DNA of 64,000 nt from Candidatus Bathyarchaeota archaeon (GTDB lineage: Archaea > Thermoproteota > Bathyarchaeia > Bathyarchaeales > Bathycorpusculaceae). Below the pieces are notes generated by a model. It was not told the origin of the DNA. It ran no database searches and saw nothing but the letters and a program-made list of their open reading frames with translations. Position 1 is the stretch's first letter; every line of letters begins with the position of its first letter. Below are positions 6,600-19,654 of this stretch, one piece after another. Where the stretch lies: NCBI GenBank assembly GCA_963826715.1, contig CAWGYA010000008.1, positions 1,120,001 through 1,184,000 of the forward strand. Direction: 5' to 3'. The translations under genes and the position numbers were made by a program.

Positions 6600-9500
6600 T
6601 TACGTCGGTGTTTTTCTTCGTTTTAGTAGAAAAGTCACAATCGCCAAGGCTATGCAAACAATTACTACTGCTATTGCCGAAATTGTGAGGGTAGAGGAAT
6701 CTATTGTTGTTGACTTTTCGCCACTTGAGAAAACCACTGACAGGCTGTGGATGCTAAAATGTATCGTAAACCAAACGTAGTAGTTGTTTCCATCTTGGGT
6801 GAAACCTTGATTTTCTGCGATTTCATTGTCTATAAAGACGGTGGGTTTTGTTCCAAAGTGTATCTCGTTTTTAGTTACGGTTATGTTTCCAAAACCAAAT
6901 GTTCCGTTTTCCCCTGTTACTGTGAAAGAGAGTGTTGTTATTTTCGCAGTTTGGTCTACTTGGATTTTAGCGTTGGAGATTTGTTTTGTGGTTATGTTTC
7001 CGCTGACAGTAAAAAGTTCGGTTGAGCCATCAAAAACTGTTATTGGTCCTTTGGTTGCGGAGGGTGTTGGAGTGGATGTGGGCTTTGGTGTTGGGGTTGA
7101 TGTCTGTGAAGTCGTGGGGTTTGTTGTTGAGCTAGTTGAAGGTGAAATAGATTCTGATGGCTGGGCTAGGACAATTATTGATGTCGTTGTTGAGGCTGTG
7201 TTTCCGGCTACGTCTTTTACAGTTAATAATGTTATGTATGTTCCAATGCTGGAGTATGTGTGGTTTGTTGTCACTCCTGTGGCAGTTGTGCCGTCGTCAA
7301 AGTCCCAGTGATAACTTGCTATGCCTGAGTTGTCGGTGCTATTACTTCCGTTTAAAACGACACTGTTTCCCAGGGTGATGGTTTGGCTGGAACCCGCATC
7401 CGGGGTTGGAGTTGTCATGTCAAGCACTATAGAAGCATCGTAAATTGAAGTTAATCCCGCATTGTCTCTGAATTGGACATAGACAACTTTTATAGCATCA
7501 TTATTTGGGAGTTGCCAAGTTTTAGAAATTGAAAAATTTTGCCAATCAGACCAAGTAACATTGTCATTGGAAAAACGCATTGTTGCTGCATTGGAGTTAT
7601 TGTCAGAGAGTGACAATGTCAGGTTAACTGTAGTATTATTGATGTATTGGGCACTGTTTTCGATTGTGATTGAGCCTGATGGGGGCGTAGTGTCAAGGAT
7701 TATGTTGGAAGTTGCAGTGAAAATAAGTCCAGCATTGTCCTTGATTTGGTAGTAAACTGTTTTTGATCCATCGCCTGTACTTAATGTCCATGTTCTGCTA
7801 TCTTTCGGCGTCTCCCATTGGGTGTTATCCCAGACGCCATTATTGCTGAATCTTACTTGATTTATTCCCGACGTCGCATCTGTGGCTGTTAATGATAAAG
7901 TGACCAAAGCAGAGCTAGTATATGTTGCTTCATTATTAATTTGGACAGATCCTGATGGCGGTGAGGTATCAAGAGTTATTGTGCTTGAGTATGTAATTGA
8001 TTGTAAACCTGCAGCATCTTTTACTTGATAATAAACTGTTTTCAATCCATCTCCAATAGTTAGAGACCAAGCTTTTGTGTCGAACGGGTTTTCCCATGGT
8101 TCTGTATCCCATACGCCATCATTGCTAAAGCGGACCTTATCAATGCCTGATGTTTGGTCGGTGAAGGTTAAAAATAATGTTACAAAAACTGATGTAGTGT
8201 AAGCACTTGTTTGGCTTATTGAAATTGAACCGAAGGGTTGGATTGTGTCTATTTGGAAGGTGAAACTTCCGTATGTGCTGTTGTTTGCTGCGTTGTCTTT
8301 GGATTTTACATAGAAGATGTGGGTTCCATCGGTTTGGGGTGTTAATATGACAGATTTCGTTGTGGTCCAGGTTTCTGGTCCATTATCTACTCGCCAGTAG
8401 TATCCTGCTACGCCACTTTTAGAGTCATTTGCTGACCAATTGAATGTGGGCGTATTATTTGTTAACCACCCAGTGAATCCATCGTCCGGATTAGGAATTG
8501 TAGGCGGGGTTAGGTCAAGGATGAAGGTCCAAGTTGGTGACCAATCGCTCCAGCCATTGATATTGTATGCTCTTACGTGCCATGTATAAGTGCCCTCAGT
8601 AAGGAACGTTAGCTGAAAAGAGGTGCTTGTTGTATTGTAAATCCCTGGTGAGGGTCCAGAAATTTCGATTTGATAGCTTGTGGCATCTGTAGAGTTGCTC
8701 CATCTGAACAAGGCGTTATTGCTTGCATTTACATAGTTGTTGGTCGGGGTTATTTGCGTTGGGGCAGAAGGAGCAGGTATATAGTTGTAATACAGGGTAT
8801 AATTACCCGTGCTTATGTTCAAAAGATTTTTTACTCTTAAATAGTAATATCCGCTTTCTAGTATCTGAAAATTAATACGGAATTGAAAGTTGCCTCCTAA
8901 ATCGTCATCATAGGTTAACAATTTTTGGTCAGAATCATATAGATAACCGTACGTATCCATTGAGCTATTTGTGTAGAATGTATAAGTGCCTGGGCTTGCG
9001 TAGAAACGGATATAGTCGTTGTCACCTGCAGGTTCTATGCTTCTCAACTGATGCTGCAAAGAAGTGGTCACTGTCATTGAACTGAATTGAGAGAAACTAT
9101 CATCAGGTTCGTAATTATCACCAATATTTAGTGTTATTGTGGAGTAGTGGTTTTTTCCTTCGCCTGTACCGTTAATGATAAATGTATAGTTTCCATGAGG
9201 CGCGATTGGGCTTGATTGAACGGTGAATGTAGAAGTGAACGTGGGGTTACCAGACTGCTGATTGAAAATAAATGAGAAATCAGAGGTTACATTTGTGCAT
9301 GATAACGAGACAAGTGTGGATGTTCCGCTAGTCAATGTCGATGTAATATTGTAAGTTGCTGAACCCTCTGGTGCTATTGTTTGAGAGTTGGGTGACGCAG
9401 AGAGCTGAAAGTCGAATTCAGTGCTTGATGACAAAATTTGGAGCTGATCTGTCCGCCATCCACTTGAAGCCAGTAGAGTACCATAACCAGGTGGTCCCAT

Positions 9501-11408
9501 CCAAACATTCCATGATACATCATAAGATCCTGGAGCTATAGTTGGGCTTGTAGCAAATTGTCTGTTTAGTGTATTGTCTCCGCCAAGAACTTTAACATAG
9601 ATGTCATTTGAGGTATCATTTATTTCATTGATTGTTCCGTGGAGGCGGATGGATGTACCTAGACCTATCTGAATTAGGGAATAACTGCTTGGATTGTTGA
9701 TGCTATAGTTTGTTGTTAATGTGGAACCACGTACAACACTTGAAGAATCTAAAAGAGGGTTCGTCAGCGAGATATCGCTATTTACACCAAAAAAGCTGGC
9801 AAAGTTGTGAAAATTAATTGACCCTAGACCAGTTACGGCATCCCAACCGGTTTGGACAGAGTAGTATCCATTGTTTCCATATCTATAGACGTCATGGAAG
9901 GAGACATTGTACCTGTTTGTTCCGTAAATGCTGTAGAATGCGTTGTTATCTAAATTCCAATTTCCATCCAAAGCAACTGCTGCAATACCTGCCATCAAAG
10001 GCGCGGATAGACTTGTGCCACCCCAACCGGTCTGTCTATCGCCATCAATGTAAATCGTAACCCCTGAGGCGGGATCGGCGTCAAGACAAATGTCGGGGAT
10101 GGCCCGCATGCCTGAAGTATTGGGAATACCTGCATTTGCTTGAAATGCTGGTTCCAAAAATATGTTAGAGTAACCTCCACCGCTTCCGCTCCAACCATTT
10201 TCAAAGTATTGGTTAGTCCCTTGGACTGTGTTGCTATAAAGTGTGGTTCCTCCGACCGCGATTACGTTTGGGTCTGATGCAGGATACTGGACGCTAATGT
10301 TACTTCCACCATTATAGGCACCGCTATCGCCTGTTGAAACAAAAACTTTGATTCCTTTTGCTGCAGCAGCTGCTAGAATGTGGGAATAACTGTTTGTTTC
10401 TTCACCACCGAAGCTTAGGGAGATGATATCTGGTGGATTAGTTTGTTGGACAAGGGTATTGATAGCTTGAAAAAGGCTGCTATAGTAGTTGTCAGGTGCA
10501 AGTTGTAGTATTATTGCAGCCTCGGGAGCCATTGCATGAGCCCATTCAACATCCAATGCTGTTTCAGTAGCCCAGCCGCTGTCTGATCCCCCTGTTCCAT
10601 TAATTGTTAAAGATAAGGCTGGAAGTCCAAAAAGAGAATTAAAGGCGTTTACGTCCGACACTATTGTTGGGTCGCCGTATGCATCTACGATGCCAATTGT
10701 TTGCCCTGCTCCAGTCCATCCATTTCCTATGGCAGTAGATATACCGTAGGCGCTCCTGAATTCGCTTGGTGCCTTATTGTATGCAAGCCCGGCGGGTTCT
10801 GCGAAATCTGATACTTTTGTAAGGAAGGGTTGGGCTGGAAAACTATTAATGTCGATTCCTGCGATATTGCATGAATTTAATTTACTTGGTACTGCGATGG
10901 TTTGTGAACTTGAATAAAACGTAATGTTTTGGTAAGAGTATAAACCGATTTGGGTTTCAAATGCTGTTGCGACATCGTCAACGGTGCCAACTGCGTTTAT
11001 TAGCAATCGATTTTGGCTTGTCGCAGTGACATTTATGTTGTGGGCTGAAAGGTAAGACAAAACTTGGTCGTAGTCTGCTTGATGGGGTGAATATTCTGTT
11101 TCAAATTCTTCCTCTGTTAATACGTTTTGTACTCCATACGTTATCATGCGAGAGCTATCTATGAAGTTCTGCAGTTTGTCATCGTTGCGTGTGCTAAAAC
11201 CAATTGCGAATTTAATTGTGCCCTCCGTCATTTCTCCTAAACTGGTCGTTTTCGCTGAGTCAAATTCTGGGGTTCTGGTGATTGATGCCGCAGGTTGATT
11301 GCTTTTGCTTTCGGAGAGACCGCTACTATTCGGCATTAAAATTTGCGCAAACAAGATGCAAAGAAGTATAATAACAAGTATCTTGTTTGAAGCTATTACT
11401 TTACTCAA
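6600..11408 (-). CDS. Cell-surface S53 (sedolisin/kumamolisin) serine protease with prodomain, Ig-like/PPC/PKD repeats, Thr/Pro linker and C-terminal TM anchor
   Basis: Signal peptide; ETALDVEW (catalytic Glu/Asp), STGDSG, GGTSLSAP (Ser), WDAVTGLGS Ca-site; PKD-like YHWDFDDG. Confidence 0.93.
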   Translation of the reverse strand: MSKVIASNKILVIILLCILFAQILMPNSSGLSESKSNQPAASITRTPEFDSAKTTSLGEMTEGTIKFAIGFSTRNDDKLQNFIDSSRMITYGVQNVLTEEEFETEYSPHQADYDQVLSYLSAHNINVTATSQNRLLINAVGTVDDVATAFETQIGLYSYQNITFYSSSQTIAVPSKLNSCNIAGIDINSFPAQPFLTKVSDFAEPAGLAYNKAPSEFRSAYGISTAIGNGWTGAGQTIGIVDAYGDPTIVSDVNAFNSLFGLPALSLTINGTGGSDSGWATETALDVEWAHAMAPEAAIILQLAPDNYYSSLFQAINTLVQQTNPPDIISLSFGGEETNSYSHILAAAAAKGIKVFVSTGDSGAYNGGSNISVQYPASDPNVIAVGGTTLYSNTVQGTNQYFENGWSGSGGGYSNIFLEPAFQANAGIPNTSGMRAIPDICLDADPASGVTIYIDGDRQTGWGGTSLSAPLMAGIAAVALDGNWNLDNNAFYSIYGTNRYNVSFHDVYRYGNNGYYSVQTGWDAVTGLGSINFHNFASFFGVNSDISLTNPLLDSSSVVRGSTLTTNYSINNPSSYSLIQIGLGTSIRLHGTINEINDTSNDIYVKVLGGDNTLNRQFATSPTIAPGSYDVSWNVWMGPPGYGTLLASSGWRTDQLQILSSSTEFDFQLSASPNSQTIAPEGSATYNITSTLTSGTSTLVSLSCTNVTSDFSFIFNQQSGNPTFTSTFTVQSSPIAPHGNYTFIINGTGEGKNHYSTITLNIGDNYEPDDSFSQFSSMTVTTSLQHQLRSIEPAGDNDYIRFYASPGTYTFYTNSSMDTYGYLYDSDQKLLTYDDDLGGNFQFRINFQILESGYYYLRVKNLLNISTGNYTLYYNYIPAPSAPTQITPTNNYVNASNNALFRWSNSTDATSYQIEISGPSPGIYNTTSTSFQLTFLTEGTYTWHVRAYNINGWSDWSPTWTFILDLTPPTIPNPDDGFTGWLTNNTPTFNWSANDSKSGVAGYYWRVDNGPETWTTTKSVILTPQTDGTHIFYVKSKDNAANNSTYGSFTFQIDTIQPFGSISISQTSAYTTSVFVTLFLTFTDQTSGIDKVRFSNDGVWDTEPWENPFDTKAWSLTIGDGLKTVYYQVKDAAGLQSITYSSTITLDTSPPSGSVQINNEATYTSSALVTLSLTATDATSGINQVRFSNNGVWDNTQWETPKDSRTWTLSTGDGSKTVYYQIKDNAGLIFTATSNIILDTTPPSGSITIENSAQYINNTTVNLTLSLSDNNSNAATMRFSNDNVTWSDWQNFSISKTWQLPNNDAIKVVYVQFRDNAGLTSIYDASIVLDMTTPTPDAGSSQTITLGNSVVLNGSNSTDNSGIASYHWDFDDGTTATGVTTNHTYSSIGTYITLLTVKDVAGNTASTTTSIIVLAQPSESISPSTSSTTNPTTSQTSTPTPKPTSTPTPSATKGPITVFDGSTELFTVSGNITTKQISNAKIQVDQTAKITTLSFTVTGENGTFGFGNITVTKNEIHFGTKPTVFIDNEIAENQGFTQDGNNYYVWFTIHFSIHSLSVVFSSGEKSTTIDSSTLTISAIAVVIVCIALAIVTFLLKRRKTPT
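7425..8255 (-). repeat. Three tandem ~92-aa Ig-like modules within the S53 protease
   Basis: Repeated (I/L)DT.PP.GS..I....YT.S..V.L.L...D..SG....RFSN....W...W.L..GDG.KTVY.Q.KD.AGL; coordinates approximate. Confidence 0.85.
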
Positions 11409-11665: not shown

Positions 11666-12163
11666 TTAAATGTGCTGGCTGATTAGTTTAGTGAGATCTA
11701 TGGCTGAGAGGTCGTAATTGCAGTGGGGACAGGTTTTTTGGATTTCCTGATTGGCTCCAACCTTAAGTGCGGAACCGCAGTGGCAGCAGAAATATGTTAG
11801 TGTTTGTCCTCTTTTTTGTAATTCTTCAATGAGTTCATTAATTGTCAATGGACATGAAGGTGTTTCCTTAATTTTTTTCCGCACATCTGCTTTCTCTTTT
11901 ACCTGTGCAACAACTGTTGGGTCAGTGCTGGTTGTGAAAAATTCGCATTTAGCGTTCTGTACATACGGTTCTTCTAGGTCGGTTCCAAAGAGTGTGCAGG
12001 AGCCCATATGGAAGAAGACACAGGCTAAACAACTGTTTTTTCGGTATTCGGCGTCGAGGGTTTTGTAGCATGAGGGACAAACTTCCACTGTTTTGCCATC
12101 TTTAACGCTGCTTAGGGGGATGCCTCGGTATGGTTGACTGCATACTTGACAGATAGACTTCAT
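11666..12163 (-). CDS. Cys-rich multi-zinc-finger hypothetical protein
   Basis: CQVC, CPSC, CLAC, CCHC and CPHC motifs in 165 aa. Confidence 0.75.
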   Translation of the reverse strand: MKSICQVCSQPYRGIPLSSVKDGKTVEVCPSCYKTLDAEYRKNSCLACVFFHMGSCTLFGTDLEEPYVQNAKCEFFTTSTDPTVVAQVKEKADVRKKIKETPSCPLTINELIEELQKRGQTLTYFCCHCGSALKVGANQEIQKTCPHCNYDLSAIDLTKLISQHI

Positions 12164-12357: not shown

Positions 12358-13632
12358 CTATCTGTATCTCAAAAGTGCCGCGAACCCACCCAATGCAGAA
12401 AGTCGCGCTTTCTCTTCTGTGCCTGTAAAAATAACCTCAACTTTTGCATCTGTTTGTGCTGCTGCATCCTCCAAAACATCCACCATATCCTTTTCCACAA
12501 TCTCCCATTCTATTCCCTTGCATTTCATGCAGGGCGTCGCCAACAGCGTTTGAAGTGTAGTTGTATCTTTCTTTTTGAGTATTTCTGATTTGCCAAGACC
12601 GCATTTTTTGCATAGGGCTTCAACTTCATAGAGATCAGAATCGTCAGTTATGAGTGCAATTTCAACTGCTCCTCTCTTAAGATCCTCCAGAACAGAATCT
12701 AAACCGGTGGTCGCCAAACCTTGTTCTTTATTGAGTTCTGCTTCGAGTCGCATCATTGTCTTTTTCTCTTCTGGTCCACACATGCTTTTTAGTGTCTCGG
12801 AGGATTTGGCGAGCATTTCGCGTATGCCGTCTTCACATGCAGTTTGAGTGTCAACCACATTTAGTAGGGCATTTTTAAGTTCATAATGCAAAAAATTGCC
12901 TTTAATGAATTCGTTTTTCGTTAACCCTGGTCCACCTACAATTAGTACAGTAGCTTTTTGTTTTTCCAGAAACGCCTTAGCTGAGTGCTCGGCTATTCTG
13001 TTGAAGAAATAGGTGATTTCCATGTCGCGTTCGCGTTCGTAGCGACGTTGACTCTGTCCACCTTTGCTTGTTTTGCCGGGTACACCCGAGGTGAGGTTTT
13101 CTAAAAATTCAATGTGTTCTCCATTGCGTATGGCAATGGTTGCTTGTTTTGCGTCGATTGCGATTAAGCCAACTATTCGTTGGTCTCTTAGCATTTGTCT
13201 AAGCTGTTCCAACTCGAAATGGTTCGTTATCTCTCTATAGAATTTGTTCACGGGTTTAGGGGGAACGAGTTCTTCGATGTTTAAAGTCTCTTTATCCTGA
13301 TTGATTCCAGCAAATATTCCTGCGAAGAGTACAAGTCCATTCTCTGGCGCTTGTTTCTGCTGTTTTACCCTCAGGATTATGCCTCGGAGGGCTTCTTGGA
13401 TTCGTTGGTTGGTGTTTCTGGATTTTAAACTCGCAGTTTCAATGTCTTCTTTGAGGTTCGCCACAATGGTGTCAATTGATGCGTGAGCTGGTATGTAAAG
13501 AGAGACAAATTCGTTGTTTGTTGCTTGTTTTTCAGAGAGGTGTGCGATGAGTTTGCGTAGCTTATGTTGTTTTGCGGAATAGCTGGTTGTCATTTGGCAG
13601 CCGTAGAAATGAGTGACTTTTTCTGTAATCAT
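12358..13632 (-). CDS. Archaeal release factor 1 (aRF1/eRF1) paralog
   Basis: VSLYIP, PENGLVLFAG, SGVPGKTSKGGQSQRRYER, GGPGLTK, GGFAALLRY; Zn ribbon CKKC/CMKC; start may be 13593. Confidence 0.92.
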   Translation of the reverse strand: MITEKVTHFYGCQMTTSYSAKQHKLRKLIAHLSEKQATNNEFVSLYIPAHASIDTIVANLKEDIETASLKSRNTNQRIQEALRGIILRVKQQKQAPENGLVLFAGIFAGINQDKETLNIEELVPPKPVNKFYREITNHFELEQLRQMLRDQRIVGLIAIDAKQATIAIRNGEHIEFLENLTSGVPGKTSKGGQSQRRYERERDMEITYFFNRIAEHSAKAFLEKQKATVLIVGGPGLTKNEFIKGNFLHYELKNALLNVVDTQTACEDGIREMLAKSSETLKSMCGPEEKKTMMRLEAELNKEQGLATTGLDSVLEDLKRGAVEIALITDDSDLYEVEALCKKCGLGKSEILKKKDTTTLQTLLATPCMKCKGIEWEIVEKDMVDVLEDAAAQTDAKVEVIFTGTEEKARLSALGGFAALLRYR

Positions 13633-13706
13633 TGAGGGTACCTACTTAAAGTATCGGCGTTGCCTAATTTATCAGTTGCTCGGCTGCGATGTACTCTGAT
13701 TATGAT

Positions 13707-13991
13707 TTATGGAAAGGTGGCAAATTCGCTCCAATGCTGTGCTAAGTATGCAATTGCCCAGATAATTAAGCCTATGTAGACTACCCAAAGCCATTTAGTT
13801 ACGGGTCCTTTGGAGTCGCGGATTGTTCCTGCGAAATCTTCAGAGTTTTTTTCTGTTTCTTCAACAGTGTATTCGTCAGAGCTTCGGACAATTAAGAAGA
13901 TGGCAATTGATACTAATCCAACAATAAGTAATGTGACATATGCATAGATTGGATCAACAAATACTATGTGCGATAGAAAAGACTGATTCAA
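13707..13991 (-). CDS. Small membrane protein resembling the cbb3 CcoP/FixP N-terminal domain
   Basis: EDFAGTIRDSKGPVTKWLWVVYIGLIIWAIAYL resembles FixP_N (DGIEE.DNPLP.WW..LF); last gene of the cco operon. Confidence 0.6.
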   Translation of the reverse strand: MNQSFLSHIVFVDPIYAYVTLLIVGLVSIAIFLIVRSSDEYTVEETEKNSEDFAGTIRDSKGPVTKWLWVVYIGLIIWAIAYLAQHWSEFATFP

Positions 13992-13993
13992 TT

Positions 13994-14140
13994 TTATTCT
14001 TCATCCTCCTCAAGGGGCAGAGAGCATAGGAAATCATTGGATTCGAACTGTTTTGTTTTAAACGCCCAAACCACAAATCCTGCAGTTATCAAAGTTATCA
14101 ACAGCGCTCCTATCGTGTAAATGAGCATGTCTATGTTCAC
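13994..14140 (-). CDS. ccoS: cbb3 oxidase maturation protein CcoS/FixS (48 aa, absent from ORF track)
   Basis: My translation MNIDMLIYTIGALLITLITAGFVVWAFKTKQFESNDFLCSLPLEEDEE; WA.K..QF motif and acidic tail; GGAGG SD; GTG overlaps upstream TGA. Confidence 0.8.
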   Translation of the reverse strand: MNIDMLIYTIGALLITLITAGFVVWAFKTKQFESNDFLCSLPLEEDEE

Positions 14141-15741
14141 AACCTAAACCTCCTTGAACTGCAATTTCGTTGACTTTGCAGTTTTGTTTTTTCATAAATG
14201 ATTTTTTGTTGCTTAAACTTTAGTTCCCAAAGTGCAATCGCAGACAATATAATCATAGCAGTAGTAGTCGATGCGCCTAAACTGGTTAAGTATCCAGCGG
14301 ATTCGGGTCCGCCTTTTAGATTTCTTGCGTAAGCATCAGTGTATTGGGGTGCCCACTTGGCATTATAATCTTGAACGGTAGAAAAACTCTGAACATAAAA
14401 TATAGCCTCATAGATTTCGTTATCTGATAATGCAAATTTCCAAGGAGGCATGTTTGTTGTTTCTACCCCTTCTCGTGCTTTCCAAACATAACGTCCATAA
14501 TTTTCAAAATCGCTCCCTGATTCCGTAAAGTTGGCTGGCACTGGAATAATATAGCCGCCATTGACTTTCCCTGAAGCTGGTCCGTCTCCTTGACCATTTT
14601 CACCGTGGCATTGGGCGCAATATAGAGTGAAGAGATCTTGTCCTGCTTTGAATTGTTGTTGAGTGCCTGCTATTGGTGGCGAATTAAGGGTTGTTTGTGC
14701 GAAGTTGTCGCCTTCAGCATCGGAGATGTCACCTGATATTGTTCTTGCTGAGCCAAATACAAAACTCATCTCGTAAATTGCGATCATTTGGATTTGGGTG
14801 TTGCTTAGTGACAAACCCCATGGAGGCATAGCTGTTCCGGGTACTCCTTCGGTGACGCGCCAGATATGGTAATTATTGCCTGGGAATGTTGCGATTCTCT
14901 CGTTTAGGTTGGCTGGTTGTGTAACTACATGGCGTGCGTAAGGGCCCTGAGCGTTTCCTGAGCCACCGTGGCATGGCAAACAGCGTTGGGTATAGTTTGC
15001 TTTTGCGGTGTTATAAATTGCTGCCCATTGATCGCCTAATGATGCGTTGCCGTTGAATACGTCATTTTCTATATCGTATTGGGATAGAACTGTCATGTAT
15101 ATTGATCCAAATTGGTTTGTTGTATTCAGGTAATCTTGGGGTACTGCAGGATGGTACGCGGCGTTGTTGGTTATGGATGTCTCAACTTGGAGATTTTTTT
15201 GTCCTAAGTTTTGAATGTAGGCGATTAGGGCATCGATTTGGGTGTCGGTTAAGAAGCCGAAGTTTGGCATTATCGAACCTGGGCTTACGCTTCTTGGGTC
15301 TTTGTCGTGGGTTTGATGCCAAATAGTTGGTCGCATGCCTCCTATCTGAGCAAGGTCTGGACCCGTTCTCTCTGTCCCCAACGCGTTGGGACTGTCATAA
15401 ACGTAGTCACCTTCTTGTGAAACGTTGCCTATTCCCCAATCTGCAGCTCTAACTTGTTGAGAGTGGCAGTAGAAGCACCCTAAAGTCATGAATAAGTTTC
15501 TTCCTTCCGCTTCCTGAGTGGTGTATGTGTGAGCTGTATCGCTTGGGGGAATATCTAAAAGAAACATGTAGGGGGCAACCACCACCATGCTGACCATAAG
15601 CAGAAATACGGCTATTCCACCTGCTGCTATGGGGAATAGATTTTTGATTTGGATCTTTTTTCCTAATGTTTTAGTTTGTTTAGTTACTGACCTTTCGATT
15701 CGATCTAATCCATTTTCAAGTTTTTTTTCGGTATTATTCAT
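14137..15741 (-). CDS. ccoO: cbb3 oxidase subunit II (CcoO) fused to two additional cytochrome c domains (CcoP-like)
   Basis: GCFYCHSQQVR, GTERTGPDLAQIG, DPRSVSPGSIMP; further CLPCH and CAQCH each followed by MPPW; N- and C-terminal TMs. Confidence 0.9.
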   Translation of the reverse strand: MNNTEKKLENGLDRIERSVTKQTKTLGKKIQIKNLFPIAAGGIAVFLLMVSMVVVAPYMFLLDIPPSDTAHTYTTQEAEGRNLFMTLGCFYCHSQQVRAADWGIGNVSQEGDYVYDSPNALGTERTGPDLAQIGGMRPTIWHQTHDKDPRSVSPGSIMPNFGFLTDTQIDALIAYIQNLGQKNLQVETSITNNAAYHPAVPQDYLNTTNQFGSIYMTVLSQYDIENDVFNGNASLGDQWAAIYNTAKANYTQRCLPCHGGSGNAQGPYARHVVTQPANLNERIATFPGNNYHIWRVTEGVPGTAMPPWGLSLSNTQIQMIAIYEMSFVFGSARTISGDISDAEGDNFAQTTLNSPPIAGTQQQFKAGQDLFTLYCAQCHGENGQGDGPASGKVNGGYIIPVPANFTESGSDFENYGRYVWKAREGVETTNMPPWKFALSDNEIYEAIFYVQSFSTVQDYNAKWAPQYTDAYARNLKGGPESAGYLTSLGASTTTAMIILSAIALWELKFKQQKIIYEKTKLQSQRNCSSRRFRL

Positions 15742-17164
15742 CGCTTAAAACCCCCTTTTGTTTAGAAATCAAGTTCAGGGTCGGTTTTGATATAATTGTC
15801 ATTATGATGTTTATGGCAAAGAGAAAAGCGGATACGACAACGATTCCGCCGCCGATAGCTCTAATGATAAAGTAAGGTGCCAAAGTTGGTAGGACTTGGG
15901 CAATTGTTTGGTGGGTAAACCAACCAGCGTTAGCTACTAACCCTGCGAGCATCATACCTAACATGAAAATAATAAAACCTAGTAGAGAAACCCACCAGGT
16001 TACATCCATGAGTTTTTTGTTGTATAGTGGTTTTCCGCTTATTCGGGGGACTAGATAGAACATCATGCCTACGATGGTGAGTCCGAAGGATGCGTAGAGT
16101 GCTAAATGTGAATGCATAACGGTCCATTGTGAATAGTGTAGATAGAGGTTCATGTCTCGGAGCGCTTGGAATGTTCCTTGAATGGAGACGAAAATATAGC
16201 ATACGAAGCCGAAAATAATGAACCTTAAAGGTACATTGCTTAAGAAAGTATGCCAGGCGCCGCGAAGTGTCATGCCGATGTTTGTTGCAAATGTTAACAC
16301 CGAAATCATCATGAGCCCACTTGTGGTGACGGCGATGGTTTTTAGCCATTCGGGAATTGAAGATTGTAATAGATGATGGCCTCCAACGCCTGTATAGAAG
16401 AATGCTAATGCGAAGAAGCTGATTAGTGAGAGGGTTACGCTGTAGAGGGCACGTTTTGAAAGTTTAGGGATAAAATAGTACCATAACGCCAATCCAAAAG
16501 GTGTGAACCAAAGACCCAGTACGTTATGTCCGTAGAACCAGTTAACTATGGCGTCAGTTAAGCCAAAAAGGGCTCCACTTGGCGGTTGCCACATGACGTT
16601 TCCTATGAAATATACAATTGGGAACCACAAAAATATCCCGGCAAAAAACCAGAGGCTTACATAGAGTTTGCGTTCTCTCCTTTTTAGGATCGTGCCAAGT
16701 ATGGTGATGCCAATTATAACTAAGGTAATCATTATCAAAACATCAATTATCCACGGCATCTCTGCGTATTCTCTGGCTTGTGTGTTTCCAACCATTATCA
16801 AAAGAATACCTGATAACACCGCAACGTTCCATAATATAGCTGCGAGCTTGCCTATTTGGGGTTTATATAATGATACTTTGCTGAGTCTCGGGGCAACGTA
16901 ATACATGGCACCTATAAGACCAGAAGATAAGAAACCAAAGAGTAAACCGTTTACATGGGCGGGTCTGATTCTTCCAAAGGTATCGAACGCTGAATCAACC
17001 AGAAATGTGGGAACAAAAAACTTAATTGCCATTATCATGCCAAAGATAACAAAAATTGGGAACCAGACTGTTGCAGCATACAACCAATATTTTGCAACGG
17101 AATCGCTGCTTTTTAAATCAACAGAATTTTTCTCTGCTTTGGCTGCTTCCAAGGTTTCTCCCAT
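15734..17164 (-). CDS. ccoN: cbb3-type (C-family) heme-copper oxidase subunit I
   Basis: FGRIRPAH, REYAE, WFYGHN, FYTGVGGHHL (helix VII Tyr plus CuB His pair), HYSQWTVMHSH; ATG at 17164 with GGTGG SD. Confidence 0.93.
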   Translation of the reverse strand: MGETLEAAKAEKNSVDLKSSDSVAKYWLYAATVWFPIFVIFGMIMAIKFFVPTFLVDSAFDTFGRIRPAHVNGLLFGFLSSGLIGAMYYVAPRLSKVSLYKPQIGKLAAILWNVAVLSGILLIMVGNTQAREYAEMPWIIDVLIMITLVIIGITILGTILKRRERKLYVSLWFFAGIFLWFPIVYFIGNVMWQPPSGALFGLTDAIVNWFYGHNVLGLWFTPFGLALWYYFIPKLSKRALYSVTLSLISFFALAFFYTGVGGHHLLQSSIPEWLKTIAVTTSGLMMISVLTFATNIGMTLRGAWHTFLSNVPLRFIIFGFVCYIFVSIQGTFQALRDMNLYLHYSQWTVMHSHLALYASFGLTIVGMMFYLVPRISGKPLYNKKLMDVTWWVSLLGFIIFMLGMMLAGLVANAGWFTHQTIAQVLPTLAPYFIIRAIGGGIVVVSAFLFAINIIMTIISKPTLNLISKQKGVLSDE

Positions 17165-17307
17165 AAAAACCACCAAAATTGACAATTAAATGTCGGATGA
17201 TTATCTTTATATAACTTTTGATTACCCTGTGCTACCTATAAATTTTTATTTCCCAAAATATTTGAATAAGTTAAGAAATAAAATTATATTTTACTGGGTA
17301 GGCTGCT

Positions 17308-17751
17308 GTGGTAGTTACTTTTGAAGTAGTTCATGAGTTGATGGCGCAGGCAAATGTAGTTATCTTAATCGGCGCTGCCTTTTTGATAGTTGTTAGTCTT
17401 TTTCTTGAACGAAAAAAGAAGTGGGTTTGGCATGGCAACTCGATGATGGTAGTGATGATAATTACCGTTCTGCTGGTCCTTGCGCACATGGGGCCTTCTT
17501 TTGTTTCAGCTGTTCTTGAGGCCGTCAATAGTTTAGATATCGTTGCGGTTGTGGGTGTTATCCATGGTGTAATAGGGGTGTTTGCCCTCGTTTTAGGCGC
17601 AGGGTTAGTTTGGGTGTGGTCGATTAACGAATCAAGCAGTACAGGGTACTGTTTTTCAAGAAAAAACCTTATGTTAAAAATCTTGGCGCTATGGCTTGTT
17701 TCTTTGGGGCTTGGCGGTTTATACTACTTGTTGCACATTACTCTTGGATAA
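17308..17751 (+). CDS. 4-TM membrane protein, DUF420-like
   Basis: Four hydrophobic helices with His residues (WHG, AHM, IHG); divergent from ccoN. Confidence 0.55.
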   Translation: MVVTFEVVHELMAQANVVILIGAAFLIVVSLFLERKKKWVWHGNSMMVVMIITVLLVLAHMGPSFVSAVLEAVNSLDIVAVVGVIHGVIGVFALVLGAGLVWVWSINESSSTGYCFSRKNLMLKILALWLVSLGLGGLYYLLHITLG

Positions 17752-19654
17752 CGCTTTGGTCGATTGTCGTCTTTGTTAAAGCTACATCCTTTATTAGTTG
17801 AGCGAAAATAGCCAAAGCTAATAAAATTATGCCTAGCCAAAGAAGATAAATTAATGGGTTATTTTGCACTTTCAGAGACAGGGTGTCTGAAAGTGAACTG
17901 GTGCCACTAAAGGTGTCAGTAAGGCTGTTATAGAGTTCATCTGTAAATTCTAAATGGAGGTAGATATCTCCGCTGGTTGTGCTGATTATGAGAGGTTTAA
18001 GCATTAGACCATAGTTGGGGTAGAAGCTAGCGGATATATTTCCTCTGTAACTTGTTTTGTCATCATGGACGGTTACGTCTGCGGTGATAATCGAATATTC
18101 TGAGATTACTGCTTTAGCTTGGGCATTGTAAACTTTTGATGTGCTATTATCTAAATGTATACTGTTAATTTGAATGGTTAGATTCAAAGCTTTATTGGTA
18201 GAGTTAACCTTCACATCTTCTAGTGTTGCTGAGGTTTTTGCTCCGGCGCTTACGAAAATACCTAGAAGTAAAACAATCACAGCTAAACCAAACAATCCTT
18301 GCCAAAACAACTTTTTAGTCTGAGCGGTTCTTACCTGTTTGTACACTAACCCCATTAATGTCACAATTAAAAGAGGGAGAGTTAAAGTTAGAAGAGTATT
18401 TACTGGCGCTATGCCTATCAATGAAAGGATAGCTCCTGTAACCAATGCTACTAGAACTATCAGAAATTGCCGGGCGTAGTGAGTTTTTTCGTTAAGGCTA
18501 AACCCAACTAGCGCTATAACAAATAGAACTACAAAAGGATAAGTCCACAGGCTGTATGCGAAATTGGTAAAGGCTAAACCGGCAAGGCATACGGCAGCTA
18601 TAAGGATTAATGCCCAGAATCCTACAAATGAGGAACGTGCAGTCAATGATTTTTTATCAACTTCCAGTTTGATGAGGGGTTTGCGTTTATTTTTTGATAG
18701 GTAAAAGAAGTAACCCATCATAGCAACAGCGTATGAGAGCATTACCGGGCCAATGGCGGATGAAGCATATGAATGGACTGATTGGGTTAATCCGCCGCGG
18801 GTTAAGGCGCTTAGAAATACTAGACTTGCGAATGTGAGCATAATCATTGTTTCTTGGGTTAGGCTGGTTTTTCCTTTTGAAATTTCTTTTACGATAAAGT
18901 AGGCTGTTAAAATGAGCCATGGTAGAAGTGAAGCTGTTTCCACGGGATCCCATGCCCAATATCCTCCCCACCCTAAGACGGCATATGCCCAAACGCCGCC
19001 TAAAGCTATGCCTATTGTAAGCAGCAACCAAGCCAAATGTGTTGATGCTTTAAAGAGCCTCATAGCGTCTAGGTCTTTGTTAGTTTTCAAACTTGCTAGC
19101 GAGAGTGCGAAAGCCAAAACCACAAAGGCATAAGCTGAAAAAACAATCGGCGGGTGAATTGCCATCCATAGACTCTGGAGTTGTGGGTTGAGTCCTATGC
19201 CCTGAACTGGGGTTATTGCTAAGTGTTCAAAAGGGTTTCTTAAGAGGCAAACAATTAAGAAAACAATAACCGCGATTCCCAAGACCTGATAGGTTACTGT
19301 TCGGGTTTTCTCTATTTTTTTGAGTCCCGTGATTCGCAGCAAAAAATATACTGCCATTAATATTATTGTTAATAGCAGCATTGAACCTCCTGCCCCTGCC
19401 CAGCTTGCATATATCTTGGAGAGAAGCGAGGTTCCCGTTGAGCTAAATGAGTAAACTGCTGAGTAAGAGAAGTTGTTGTTTATGAATGCTAAAAGAAGCG
19501 ACACATACAAACCTAAAATGATTAGGAAAGCAGTGGCGGAAGCGAAAATACCGCCTCCGTTTTTCCATTTTTGACTTATACCGGTTAGCGGAAAAAGTAT
19601 ATCTAATAAAATAAGCAAAACGGCTACAATTAGAAGAAATATTTCCCAGTTCAT
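17738..19654 (-). CDS. ccmF: Cytochrome c biogenesis heme lyase CcmF (System I)
   Basis: WAGAGGSMLL, GLNPQLQ..MAIHPP, WAYAVLGWGGYWAWDPVETASLLPW (WWD domain), LTRGG..SVHSYA. Confidence 0.93.
   Translation of the reverse strand: MNWEIFLLIVAVLLILLDILFPLTGISQKWKNGGGIFASATAFLIILGLYVSLLLAFINNNFSYSAVYSFSSTGTSLLSKIYASWAGAGGSMLLLTIILMAVYFLLRITGLKKIEKTRTVTYQVLGIAVIVFLIVCLLRNPFEHLAITPVQGIGLNPQLQSLWMAIHPPIVFSAYAFVVLAFALSLASLKTNKDLDAMRLFKASTHLAWLLLTIGIALGGVWAYAVLGWGGYWAWDPVETASLLPWLILTAYFIVKEISKGKTSLTQETMIMLTFASLVFLSALTRGGLTQSVHSYASSAIGPVMLSYAVAMMGYFFYLSKNKRKPLIKLEVDKKSLTARSSFVGFWALILIAAVCLAGLAFTNFAYSLWTYPFVVLFVIALVGFSLNEKTHYARQFLIVLVALVTGAILSLIGIAPVNTLLTLTLPLLIVTLMGLVYKQVRTAQTKKLFWQGLFGLAVIVLLLGIFVSAGAKTSATLEDVKVNSTNKALNLTIQINSIHLDNSTSKVYNAQAKAVISEYSIITADVTVHDDKTSYRGNISASFYPNYGLMLKPLIISTTSGDIYLHLEFTDELYNSLTDTFSGTSSLSDTLSLKVQNNPLIYLLWLGIILLALAIFAQLIKDVALTKTTIDQSVIQE

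Follow-up and report, generated by a model that had tools for sequence, protein, structure and literature searches.

An aRF1 xenolog in Bathyarchaeia without the stop-codon-reading motifs: a candidate codon-independent A-site factor

The stretch analysed here comprises 64,000 nucleotides of a Candidatus Bathyarchaeota archaeon (contig CAWGYA010000008.1, positions 1,120,001 to 1,184,000; hereafter the window, from genome G000). At 12358-13632 on the minus strand it encodes a protein of the archaeal release factor 1 (aRF1) family in which the usual constraint is inverted: the decoding motifs are the most variable part of the family, while the loop directed to the peptidyl-transferase centre (PTC) and the C-terminus match real aRF1 in their conservation. 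Phylogeny indicates that the gene, hereafter the xenolog, was acquired horizontally from another archaeal class and diverged fast after the transfer. We favour, with a probability of roughly 40%, the reading that its product is an aRF1-derived A-site factor which acts independently of the stop codon and would trigger peptidyl-tRNA hydrolysis in GGQ copies such as that of the window. This reading is weighed below against what was observed of the motif states, selection pattern, origin, distribution and mobility of the family.

Motif sites were located by HMMER and MAFFT alignments against the canonical aRF1 strings G(S/R)(H/G)TE, TASNIKS and YRCDxxF. Opposite the first, the GT(S/x) loop, the xenolog carries ATNNEF (residues 37-42, 13507-13524; aligned residues TNNE), a site that varies among orthologs. 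TASLKS (residues 66-71, 13420-13437) stands opposite the second, aligned as SL-KS and one residue shorter than TASNIKS, and FYREITNHF (residues 131-139, 13216-13242; aligned residues R-E-I-T-N-H-F) opposite the third. None of the three aRF1 characters, NIKS, YxCxxxF and the GT(S/x) loop, is present. The PTC-directed loop GKTSKGGQSQRRYERERD (13024-13077) keeps GGQ at 13054-13062 (residues 191-193) within KGGQSQRRYER, so the window copy does carry this aRF1 tripeptide, but it is not a family-wide character. All these sites lie on the minus strand. The preliminary description of this DNA had reported the intact GGQ together with the four strings ATNNEF, TASLKS, FYREITNHF and KGGQSQRRYER, and each was recovered opposite the corresponding canonical site. 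Since more than 40 orthologs in related genomes show the same losses, as do at least 120 metagenomic clusters, neither chance nor a frame artefact explains them. Canonical aRF1 reads GSHTE at the GT(S) loop in 22/22 sequences of the genus and GRGTE in 10/10 from other families of the order; all three stops are used in spite of this difference.

Among orthologs NIKS is absent in 22 of the 22 aligned, the loop differing in length and sequence with indels of up to 8 residues. The YxCxxxF site reads Y.YEVD(D/N)HF in most of them, with Cys replaced by Val and no Cys or Thr; in some orthologs GRG(T/M)EF is retained, as are both aromatic residues (Tyr, Phe) of YxCxxxF. The loop GK..KGG.SQRRYERERD is invariant across the family except at the Gln position. 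This was quantified as column entropy (in bits) for the xenolog clade, the Bathyarchaeia canonical aRF1s and the Nitrososphaeria canonical aRF1s, respectively. Values were 1.75 vs 0.40 vs 0.06 at the GT site, 2.11 vs 0.08 vs 0.19 at the NIKS site, 1.28 vs 0.25 vs 0.18 at the YxCxxxF site and 1.30 vs 0.68 vs 0.87 for the rest of domain N. The GGQ loop gave 0.22 vs 0.29 vs 0.32, and the entropy of the xenolog C-terminus is equal to or below that of the canonical clades.

Selection was estimated as the ratio of nonsynonymous to synonymous substitution rates (dN/dS) by the Nei-Gojobori method, using pairs with a whole-gene dS below 1.5 (34 pairs for the xenolog, 32 for the canonical aRF1 of the same genus). 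Overall dN/dS was 0.157 for the xenolog and 0.048 for the canonical aRF1. By domain, the xenolog and canonical values were 0.205 vs 0.039 in N, 0.122 vs 0.042 in M and 0.143 vs 0.061 in C. Amino-acid divergence of the xenolog relative to the canonical protein, compared over 17 genomes, was 6.2x in N, 2.5x in M and 1.9x in C. The domain-wise analysis that the preliminary description had proposed therefore finds purifying selection in N, M and C, relaxed most in N, and the family is not decaying. Broken copies were seen in G342, G325 and, as a second copy, G009.

The coding sequence is an uninterrupted open reading frame (ORF) with an ATG start, 424 amino acids plus stop, and the three-domain architecture of aRF1. 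Its membership of the aRF1/eRF1 family as a whole protein is given by the NCBIfam equivalog TIGR03676 (aRF1_eRF1), with 340.9 bits against a cut-off of 234.7. All three Pfam domains are matched above their cut-offs: eRF1_1 with 34.1, eRF1_2 with 109.6 and eRF1_3 with 51.2 bits, the first being weak in comparison with the 85.0 bits of the canonical aRF1 of the same genome. The nearest solved structure is Halobacterium aRF1 (4af1, E 8e-48 by HMMER, aligned end to end). An AlphaFold model based on an alignment of 73 sequences has a mean predicted local distance difference test score (pLDDT) of 81.9, and its top PDB matches are aRF1/eRF1 chains. The modelled N domain superposes on that of human eRF1 (2llx) with a TM score of 0.80 on the target and a root mean square deviation of 2.2 A over 128 columns. 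A full aRF1 fold is thus predicted for the xenolog. In domain C the four-Cys insertion of aRF1 type (CKKC ... CMKC, 12514-12612, minus strand) is retained, with C341, C344, C368 and C371 invariant in the 73 aligned sequences. The C-terminus GGFAALLRYR (12361-12390, minus strand), counterpart of the eRF1 GILRY region, is likewise conserved (GG.AA.LRY in orthologs). The exception to this likeness is a family-specific N-terminal extension, residues 1-13 (MITEKVTHFYGCQ, 13594-13632, minus strand), which is absent from canonical aRF1 and has the consensus ..EKV.HF.GC.Q in 22 orthologs; residues 1-15 of the model have a pLDDT below 50.

In answer to a check proposed in the preliminary description, the 2.64 Mb assembly of G000 also encodes a separate canonical aRF1 (509.9 bits; G000:C8:534134-535363, L001 1492-2760, minus strand), which lies outside the window and has TASNIKS, YRCDNRF and GGQ intact. 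Pelota is present as well (253.2 bits). Long ORFs of this genome end in TAA 454, TAG 200 and TGA 196 times, and ARAGORN identified 37 tRNAs, none of them a suppressor. Given the canonical aRF1, the use of all three stops and the lack of a detected suppressor tRNA, the xenolog is not the sole release factor and no need for recoding arises; recoding was rejected as an explanation on the last two grounds. A fourth ORF of the aeRF1 superfamily in G000 (240 amino acids, G000:C1:13133-13801, L008 1492-2214, minus strand) has the eRF1_3 domain only (27.4 bits) and no GGQ-type loop.

The relation of the xenolog to other aRF1s was studied in a 97-row maximum likelihood (ML) tree (LG+G4, quick search). 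The xenolog clade (support 100) is nested in the Nitrososphaeria aRF1s (SH-aLRT 100), adjoins five soil/groundwater Nitrososphaerales sequences (SH-aLRT 99) and stands apart from the Bathyarchaeia canonical clade (99); its stem branch has a length of 0.56. Uniting the xenolog with Bathyarchaeia aRF1 is rejected by the approximately unbiased (AU) test (delta lnL 73.6, p 0.0078), the grouping having been chosen after the tree was seen. Separate trees of domains N, M and C show the same Nitrososphaeria affinity with supports of 98, 95 and 49/80. The xenolog and the Nitrososphaeria aRF1s have characters in common, among them a Lys that precedes GG and a YxCxxxF strand ending in DDHF. An in-lineage paralog of the host aRF1 was rejected, as the ML tree, AU test and per-domain trees give no sister relation to Bathyarchaeia aRF1. 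The paralog label is accordingly replaced by that of a xenolog, and horizontal acquisition from another archaeal class is what these trees point to.

In a first sample, orthologs with 48-64% identity were found in 17/24 other genomes of the genus and in 0/16 from other families. A wider sample covered 401 genomes of the class with a completeness of 80% or more; counts were made among the matches listed, which were the best-scoring ones. On this basis the xenolog type occurs in 30/56 genomes of the genus, 12/92 of other genera of the family and 3/25 of one other family (one of them broken); it was found in 0/57 genomes of the remaining families of the order and in 0/171 of other orders. Metagenomes yielded at least 120 clusters at 90% identity, the best 120 being all of xenolog type. 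Two xenolog copies are present in G005 and G314. G189 and G296 show only the xenolog type; the xenolog as sole aRF1 was rejected for both, and these metagenome-assembled genomes (94% and 96% complete) are read as having assembly gaps, given that for two other members of the genus no aRF1 at all was detected.

The xenolog gene tree does not track taxonomy. G019 and G385, of families f1 and f7, have xenolog proteins that are 90.6% identical and canonical aRF1s that are 63.9% identical; for G019 and G414 these values are 91.7% and 76.1%. G019, G366, G385 and G414 share a segment of 1348-1536 bp that contains the gene and is 91.6-93.9% identical in nucleotides; beyond it the flanks are unrelated, and its ends carry no terminal repeats. 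These data indicate recent transfer between Bathyarchaeia families as a single-gene unit of approximately 1.4 kb. Among pairs from the genus, xenolog and canonical dS are partly correlated (Spearman 0.53, 50 pairs), so that inheritance is mixed, vertical and horizontal.

The mechanism that we propose, from ribosome binding and codon independence to hydrolysis and its physiological trigger, is predicted from sequence patterns. Its starting point is a Nitrososphaeria-type aRF1 that was transferred horizontally into soil Bathyarchaeia. There the decoding pocket formed by GT, NIKS and YxCxxxF was freed from constraint and a short conserved N-terminal extension was gained. The domain-M loop that enters the PTC was kept, as were the domain-C surfaces by which canonical aRF1 binds aEF1-alpha and ABCE1. 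A role of the eRF1-type C-terminal region in binding the GTPase partner is described in sections of PMC2613156. The retained fold, PTC loop, aRF1-type domain C and C-terminus point to docking as in aRF1, with the domain-M loop placed in the PTC, and since it is exactly the stop-codon pocket that was lost, a codon-independent A-site factor is the most economical reading. The xenolog would be delivered to ribosomes as aRF1 is, but would accept an A site without a stop codon, as in a stalled, non-stop or otherwise aberrant complex. There the GGQ copies may trigger peptidyl-tRNA hydrolysis, hand the ribosome to ABCE1 for splitting, or both.

Several observations weigh against this proposal, first of all the state of the catalytic Gln. 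Of the 40 genomic orthologs with a readable loop, 26 have Q at this position, 12 have S, and E and A occur once each, so that 14/40 are replaced. The best 120 metagenomic clusters comprise 84 with Q, 24 with S, four each with E and W and one with M (3 unresolved), which makes at least 33/120 replaced. At least three state changes are needed on a 39-row tree, and Ser codons at the site are mostly TCN, two steps from CAR (the window copy has CAG). The predominance of Q and the small number of changes, about three, suggest that Gln is favoured though not essential. W, M and E are hard to square with a universal hydrolase role, and by this pattern hydrolysis cannot be the function selected across the family unless Gln is dispensable. 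Shaw and Green reportedly found in 2007 that the Gln side chain of the bacterial release factor GGQ is largely dispensable for hydrolysis in vitro and that the glycines are not; if so, GGS and GGA variants could still hydrolyse. Second, domain N is still under purifying selection (0.205) and has gained a conserved extension, so it may recognise something specific. Third, the xenolog is dispensable, as it was not found in 26/56 sampled genomes of the genus among the matches listed and broken copies occur. Finally, small subclades aside, a conserved neighbour that would link it to a rescue pathway was found at 0 of 21 loci within +-1.5 kb.

For the codon-independent hydrolase of the preliminary description this leaves a divided result: codon independence is favoured by motifs that are lost and hypervariable, and hydrolysis is weakened as a family function by the Gln variants while a peptidyl-tRNA hydrolase role is plausible for the GGQ-bearing window copy. 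That description had also taken relaxed decay reaching GGQ in the orthologs as speaking against a rescue function. Such decay applies to the Gln, with the replacements counted above, and does not apply to the two glycines and the rest of the loop, which are invariant.

The same Gln counts are what makes a non-hydrolytic A-site factor the foremost alternative, one that we consider possible if rather improbable. Such a factor would occupy the A site and the PTC entrance without release, and lead either to ABCE1-dependent splitting, like Pelota, or to hibernation under stress, like Balon. With the Gln replaced so often and the rest of the loop invariant, what is selected across the family would be placement of the loop and not Gln chemistry. 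Pelota and Balon likewise lack decoding elements of NIKS type according to parts of PMC2613156 and PMC10901736, and Burroughs and Aravind proposed, in sections of PMC6514570, that aeRF1 families without the Gln insert into the A site and thereby inhibit or disassemble. Balon chains are also among the structural matches of the xenolog model (8v9j, E 2.5e-18). However, Pelota and Balon lost the whole GGQ loop, whereas the xenolog GG and SQRRYERERD are as conserved as in real aRF1 and Gln is present in about 65-70% of members. Scores against the corresponding hidden Markov models are far below threshold, with 58.4 bits vs 177.65 for Pelota (TIGR00111) and 29.3 vs 320 for Rv2629/Balon (NF052289), and the window copy itself has GGQ.

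Mobility raises a further alternative, which we regard as unlikely: a conflict-related or selfish mobile factor. It would counter or mimic attacks on translation, such as viral takeover or ribosome-jamming toxins, or be a dominant competitor of the host aRF1, the fast N domain then reflecting an arms race. This fits the foreign origin of the xenolog, its recent interfamily transfer (G019/G385) with identity confined to the 1348-1536 bp segment, its patchy distribution by group, the two copies in G005 and G314 and the tRNA gene found directly upstream in 2/9 loci scanned. Release factor paralogs are recruited in such conflicts, as argued in sections of PMC6514570. On the other side, PADLOC defence families gave no match for the xenolog or its two neighbours, and no integrase, transposase or defence gene was seen among the G000 neighbours scanned. 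Viral contigs of IMG/VR contain no relative of the family except one distant aRF1-like ORF with 33% identity, the shared segments lack terminal repeats, and the mean dN/dS of domain N, 0.2, is not above 1, although this is a domain mean and not a site-wise value. A more specific and equally doubtful version is that of a mobile, self-contained module, a codon-blind terminator or ribosome shut-off switch used in translation conflicts of soil archaea (virus defence, counter-defence or toxin relief), in which the Gln/Ser/Glu/Trp polymorphism would tune or disarm lethality.

The preliminary description had offered a release factor of altered specificity as its other option, in which a codon, be it a subset of stops or a sense codon, would still be read via different residues. 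In its favour are the N-domain fold, which is kept and under purifying selection, the orthologs that retain GRG(T/M)EF and the Tyr/Phe of YxCxxxF, and the altered specificity shown by ciliate eRF1s with variant NIKS, as reported in a section of PMC2613156. A specific reader should conserve its reading elements, but these are lost family-wide and are the least conserved columns, with NIKS-loop indels of up to 8 residues; moreover all three stops serve normally in G000, whose 37 detected tRNAs include no suppressor. We consider this option quite unlikely. A decaying redundant copy without a function of its own is disfavoured and highly improbable: every domain does evolve faster than in canonical aRF1, Gln is not fixed, broken copies occur and many relatives are without the gene, but at divergences of dS around 1 the dN/dS is 0.16, intact ORFs are present in over 40 genomes and in at least 120 clusters, and the 17-residue loop and four Cys are invariant, with a conserved new N-terminal extension and start context.

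Returning to the gene itself, three conserved features (start codon, Shine-Dalgarno-like string and an A/T-rich element upstream) suggest that it is expressed independently. A Shine-Dalgarno-like TAGGT (13640-13644, minus strand) lies 7 nt upstream of the ATG, and a TATA/BRE-like (B recognition element) A/T-rich element, AACTGATAAATTAGG (13663-13677, minus strand), has its 3' end 30 nt upstream and is a candidate promoter. In ortholog loci the aligned first codon is TTG, ATG or GTG in 28/34, and a purine-rich Shine-Dalgarno-like string of GGTG/AGGT type is found at the same position in 31/34, by a loose pattern applied without a control. Strings resembling (A/C)(T/C)(A/G)ATAAAT(T/C)A occur at the same distance, approximately 30 nt upstream, in 29/34 loci, again by a loose pattern and without a shuffle control. 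Among the 5 runs from 2 studies listed as carrying the stretch none is an RNA run; the DNA runs are labelled soil metagenome.

A conserved operon partner was rejected. Tblastn of the ORFs in 30 kb of the window against 21 ortholog loci returned the xenolog itself and one ORF in G172, the nearest relative, with which G000 shows local synteny at the xenolog locus, and clustering of flank ORFs gave common neighbours only at the level of subclades. Downstream of the xenolog a Cys-rich protein of 165 amino acids (11666-12163, minus strand) has a weak double-zinc-ribbon match (20.6 bits, below cut-off). It is 74% identical to a protein near the xenolog in G172, at a gap of 2.5 kb, and was not found beside the other 20 orthologs. 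The Cys-rich neighbour of G001, G010 and G023 has no detectable relation to it by BLASTP (E 1.8). Further along, a secreted, membrane-anchored protein of 1602 amino acids (6600-11408, minus strand) combines, as judged from its translation, a peptidase-like N-terminal region with numerous repeats of Ig-like modules. On the other side, immediately upstream of the xenolog, is a cbb3-type haem-copper oxidase cluster (13707-19654, minus strand), missing from the otherwise syntenic locus of G172. It consists of a small FixP_N-like protein (13707-13991), a fusion of FixO with two cytochrome-c domains (14137-15741), COX1/CcoN (15734-17185) and a CcmF-like cytochrome-c assembly protein (17738-19654), all on the minus strand.

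In other loci tRNA genes were found within approximately 100 nt upstream of the xenolog in 2 of 9 scanned, namely tRNA-Ser(GCT) at L020 1326-1412 (G022) and tRNA-Leu(CAG) at L157 174-261 (G389); these may mark integration at tRNA genes. A virus origin of the xenolog was rejected: a single-sequence scan of IMG/VR returned nothing, and an alignment scan returned only the 33%-identical aRF1-like ORF, whose position in the tree is unreliable (end branch 1.82). This ORF of 324 amino acids (L188 7971-8942, plus strand) lies on IMGVR_UViG_3300031999_007842, a 156-kb contig filed as viral, and has a shortened domain C. NIKS and YRCGNEF are present in it, and its loop reads GKSHKGGQSQRRYERERD, as in the xenolog family. 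Among full-length aRF1 representatives, P0140 and P0154 keep NIKS and YxCxxxF and have GGW and GGF for GGQ, the converse of the xenolog. Many other representatives (P0121, P0123-P0125, P0129, P0131 and others) are 650-1450 amino acids long, and their matches break at residue 193/194, the GGQ site; these look like inteins inserted in the GGQ motif.

To our knowledge no archaeal counterpart is known of ArfB, of tmRNA or of a cytosolic peptidyl-tRNA hydrolase that acts independently of the codon on 70S-type complexes. Pelota splits ribosomes without peptide release. The xenolog is a candidate for this missing archaeal rescue factor, or for a shut-off factor. As a natural aRF1 that has lost the stop-codon pocket and kept the PTC loop, it would be a separation-of-function variant for the coupling of decoding and hydrolysis in the aRF1/eRF1 family, and the series from Gln to Ser, Glu, Ala, Trp and Met amounts to an evolutionary mutagenesis of the GGQ motif. 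Its cross-class origin and ongoing single-gene transfer show that genes of the translation core, too, can take on an accessory and mobile character. Were the mobile conflict module to prove correct, archaea would have in it their first mobile conflict system based on a release factor. In the literature on Bathyarchaeia release factors and aRF1 homologs, supplementary tables lying outside the scope, no published description of a stop-blind xenolog was found, and the Bathyarchaeia release-factor literature gave matches on Asgard recoding only.

The closest known system is the aRF1 of Nitrososphaeria (Thaumarchaeota; TIGR03676), which has in common with the xenolog the three domains, the length, the KGGQS context, the DDHF-type end, the four-Cys insertion and the LLRY C-terminus. 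The xenolog differs in its lost and hypervariable motifs, its 2-6x faster evolution, a Gln that is not fixed, the 13-residue extension and its occurrence in addition to a host aRF1. Methanosarcina aRF1-2 is similar in being an extra gene of the aRF1 family beside a working aRF1. Alkalaeva et al. reportedly observed in 2009 that, of the two aRF1 homologs of M. barkeri, only one has release activity. More generally, two aRF1 copies are present in 4.3% of sampled archaeal genomes (n = 81), and copy number increases in larger genomes, as stated in part of PMC12626013. Second copies are taken in that part of the source as lineage-specific duplications, whereas the xenolog is a cross-class transfer that is still moving.

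Among relatives without decoding motifs, Pelota/Dom34 resembles the predicted role of the xenolog as an A-site factor of the aeRF1 superfamily that lacks stop-codon motifs and acts with ABCE1 on stalled ribosomes (sections of PMC2613156 and PMC6514570). Its N domain is Sm-like and a GGQ loop is lacking, in contrast to the eRF1-type N fold and GG(Q) loop of the xenolog, whose Pelota score is far below threshold, as given above. Balon/Rv2629 shares the three aRF1-like domains and the loss of NIKS; it binds the A site whatever codon is present there. According to the same portion of PMC10901736, it has no GGQ and is distinguished by an HP motif, a lasso loop and a bL27 trap as well as a beta-hairpin in domain C; no such feature was seen in the xenolog, for which no residue-by-residue search was made. 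Structural matches to Balon have about 14-16% identity.

Functional analogues are Vms1/ANKZF1, the VLRF1 clade and ArfB, in which a Gln-bearing loop like that of release factors acts on stalled complexes independently of the codon. ArfB belongs to the unrelated bacterial release factor fold. The acVLRF1 family of Pfam (PF18859) matches domain M of the xenolog with 39.2 bits over residues 169-234 only, and NCBIfam NF041024 gives 34.2 bits, well below its cut-off of 125. VLRF1 families have GxxQ/GGxSQ loops, are without a Pelota-type C domain or codon-binding domain and act on 60S-type complexes, as set out in sections of PMC6514570; the xenolog has domain C. Second aRF1 copies, and aeRF1-family proteins without decoding motifs such as Pelota, Balon and Vms1/VLRF1, were thus already known. 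What the xenolog family adds is its cross-class origin, single-gene mobility, inverted constraint and a natural polymorphism at the catalytic Gln.

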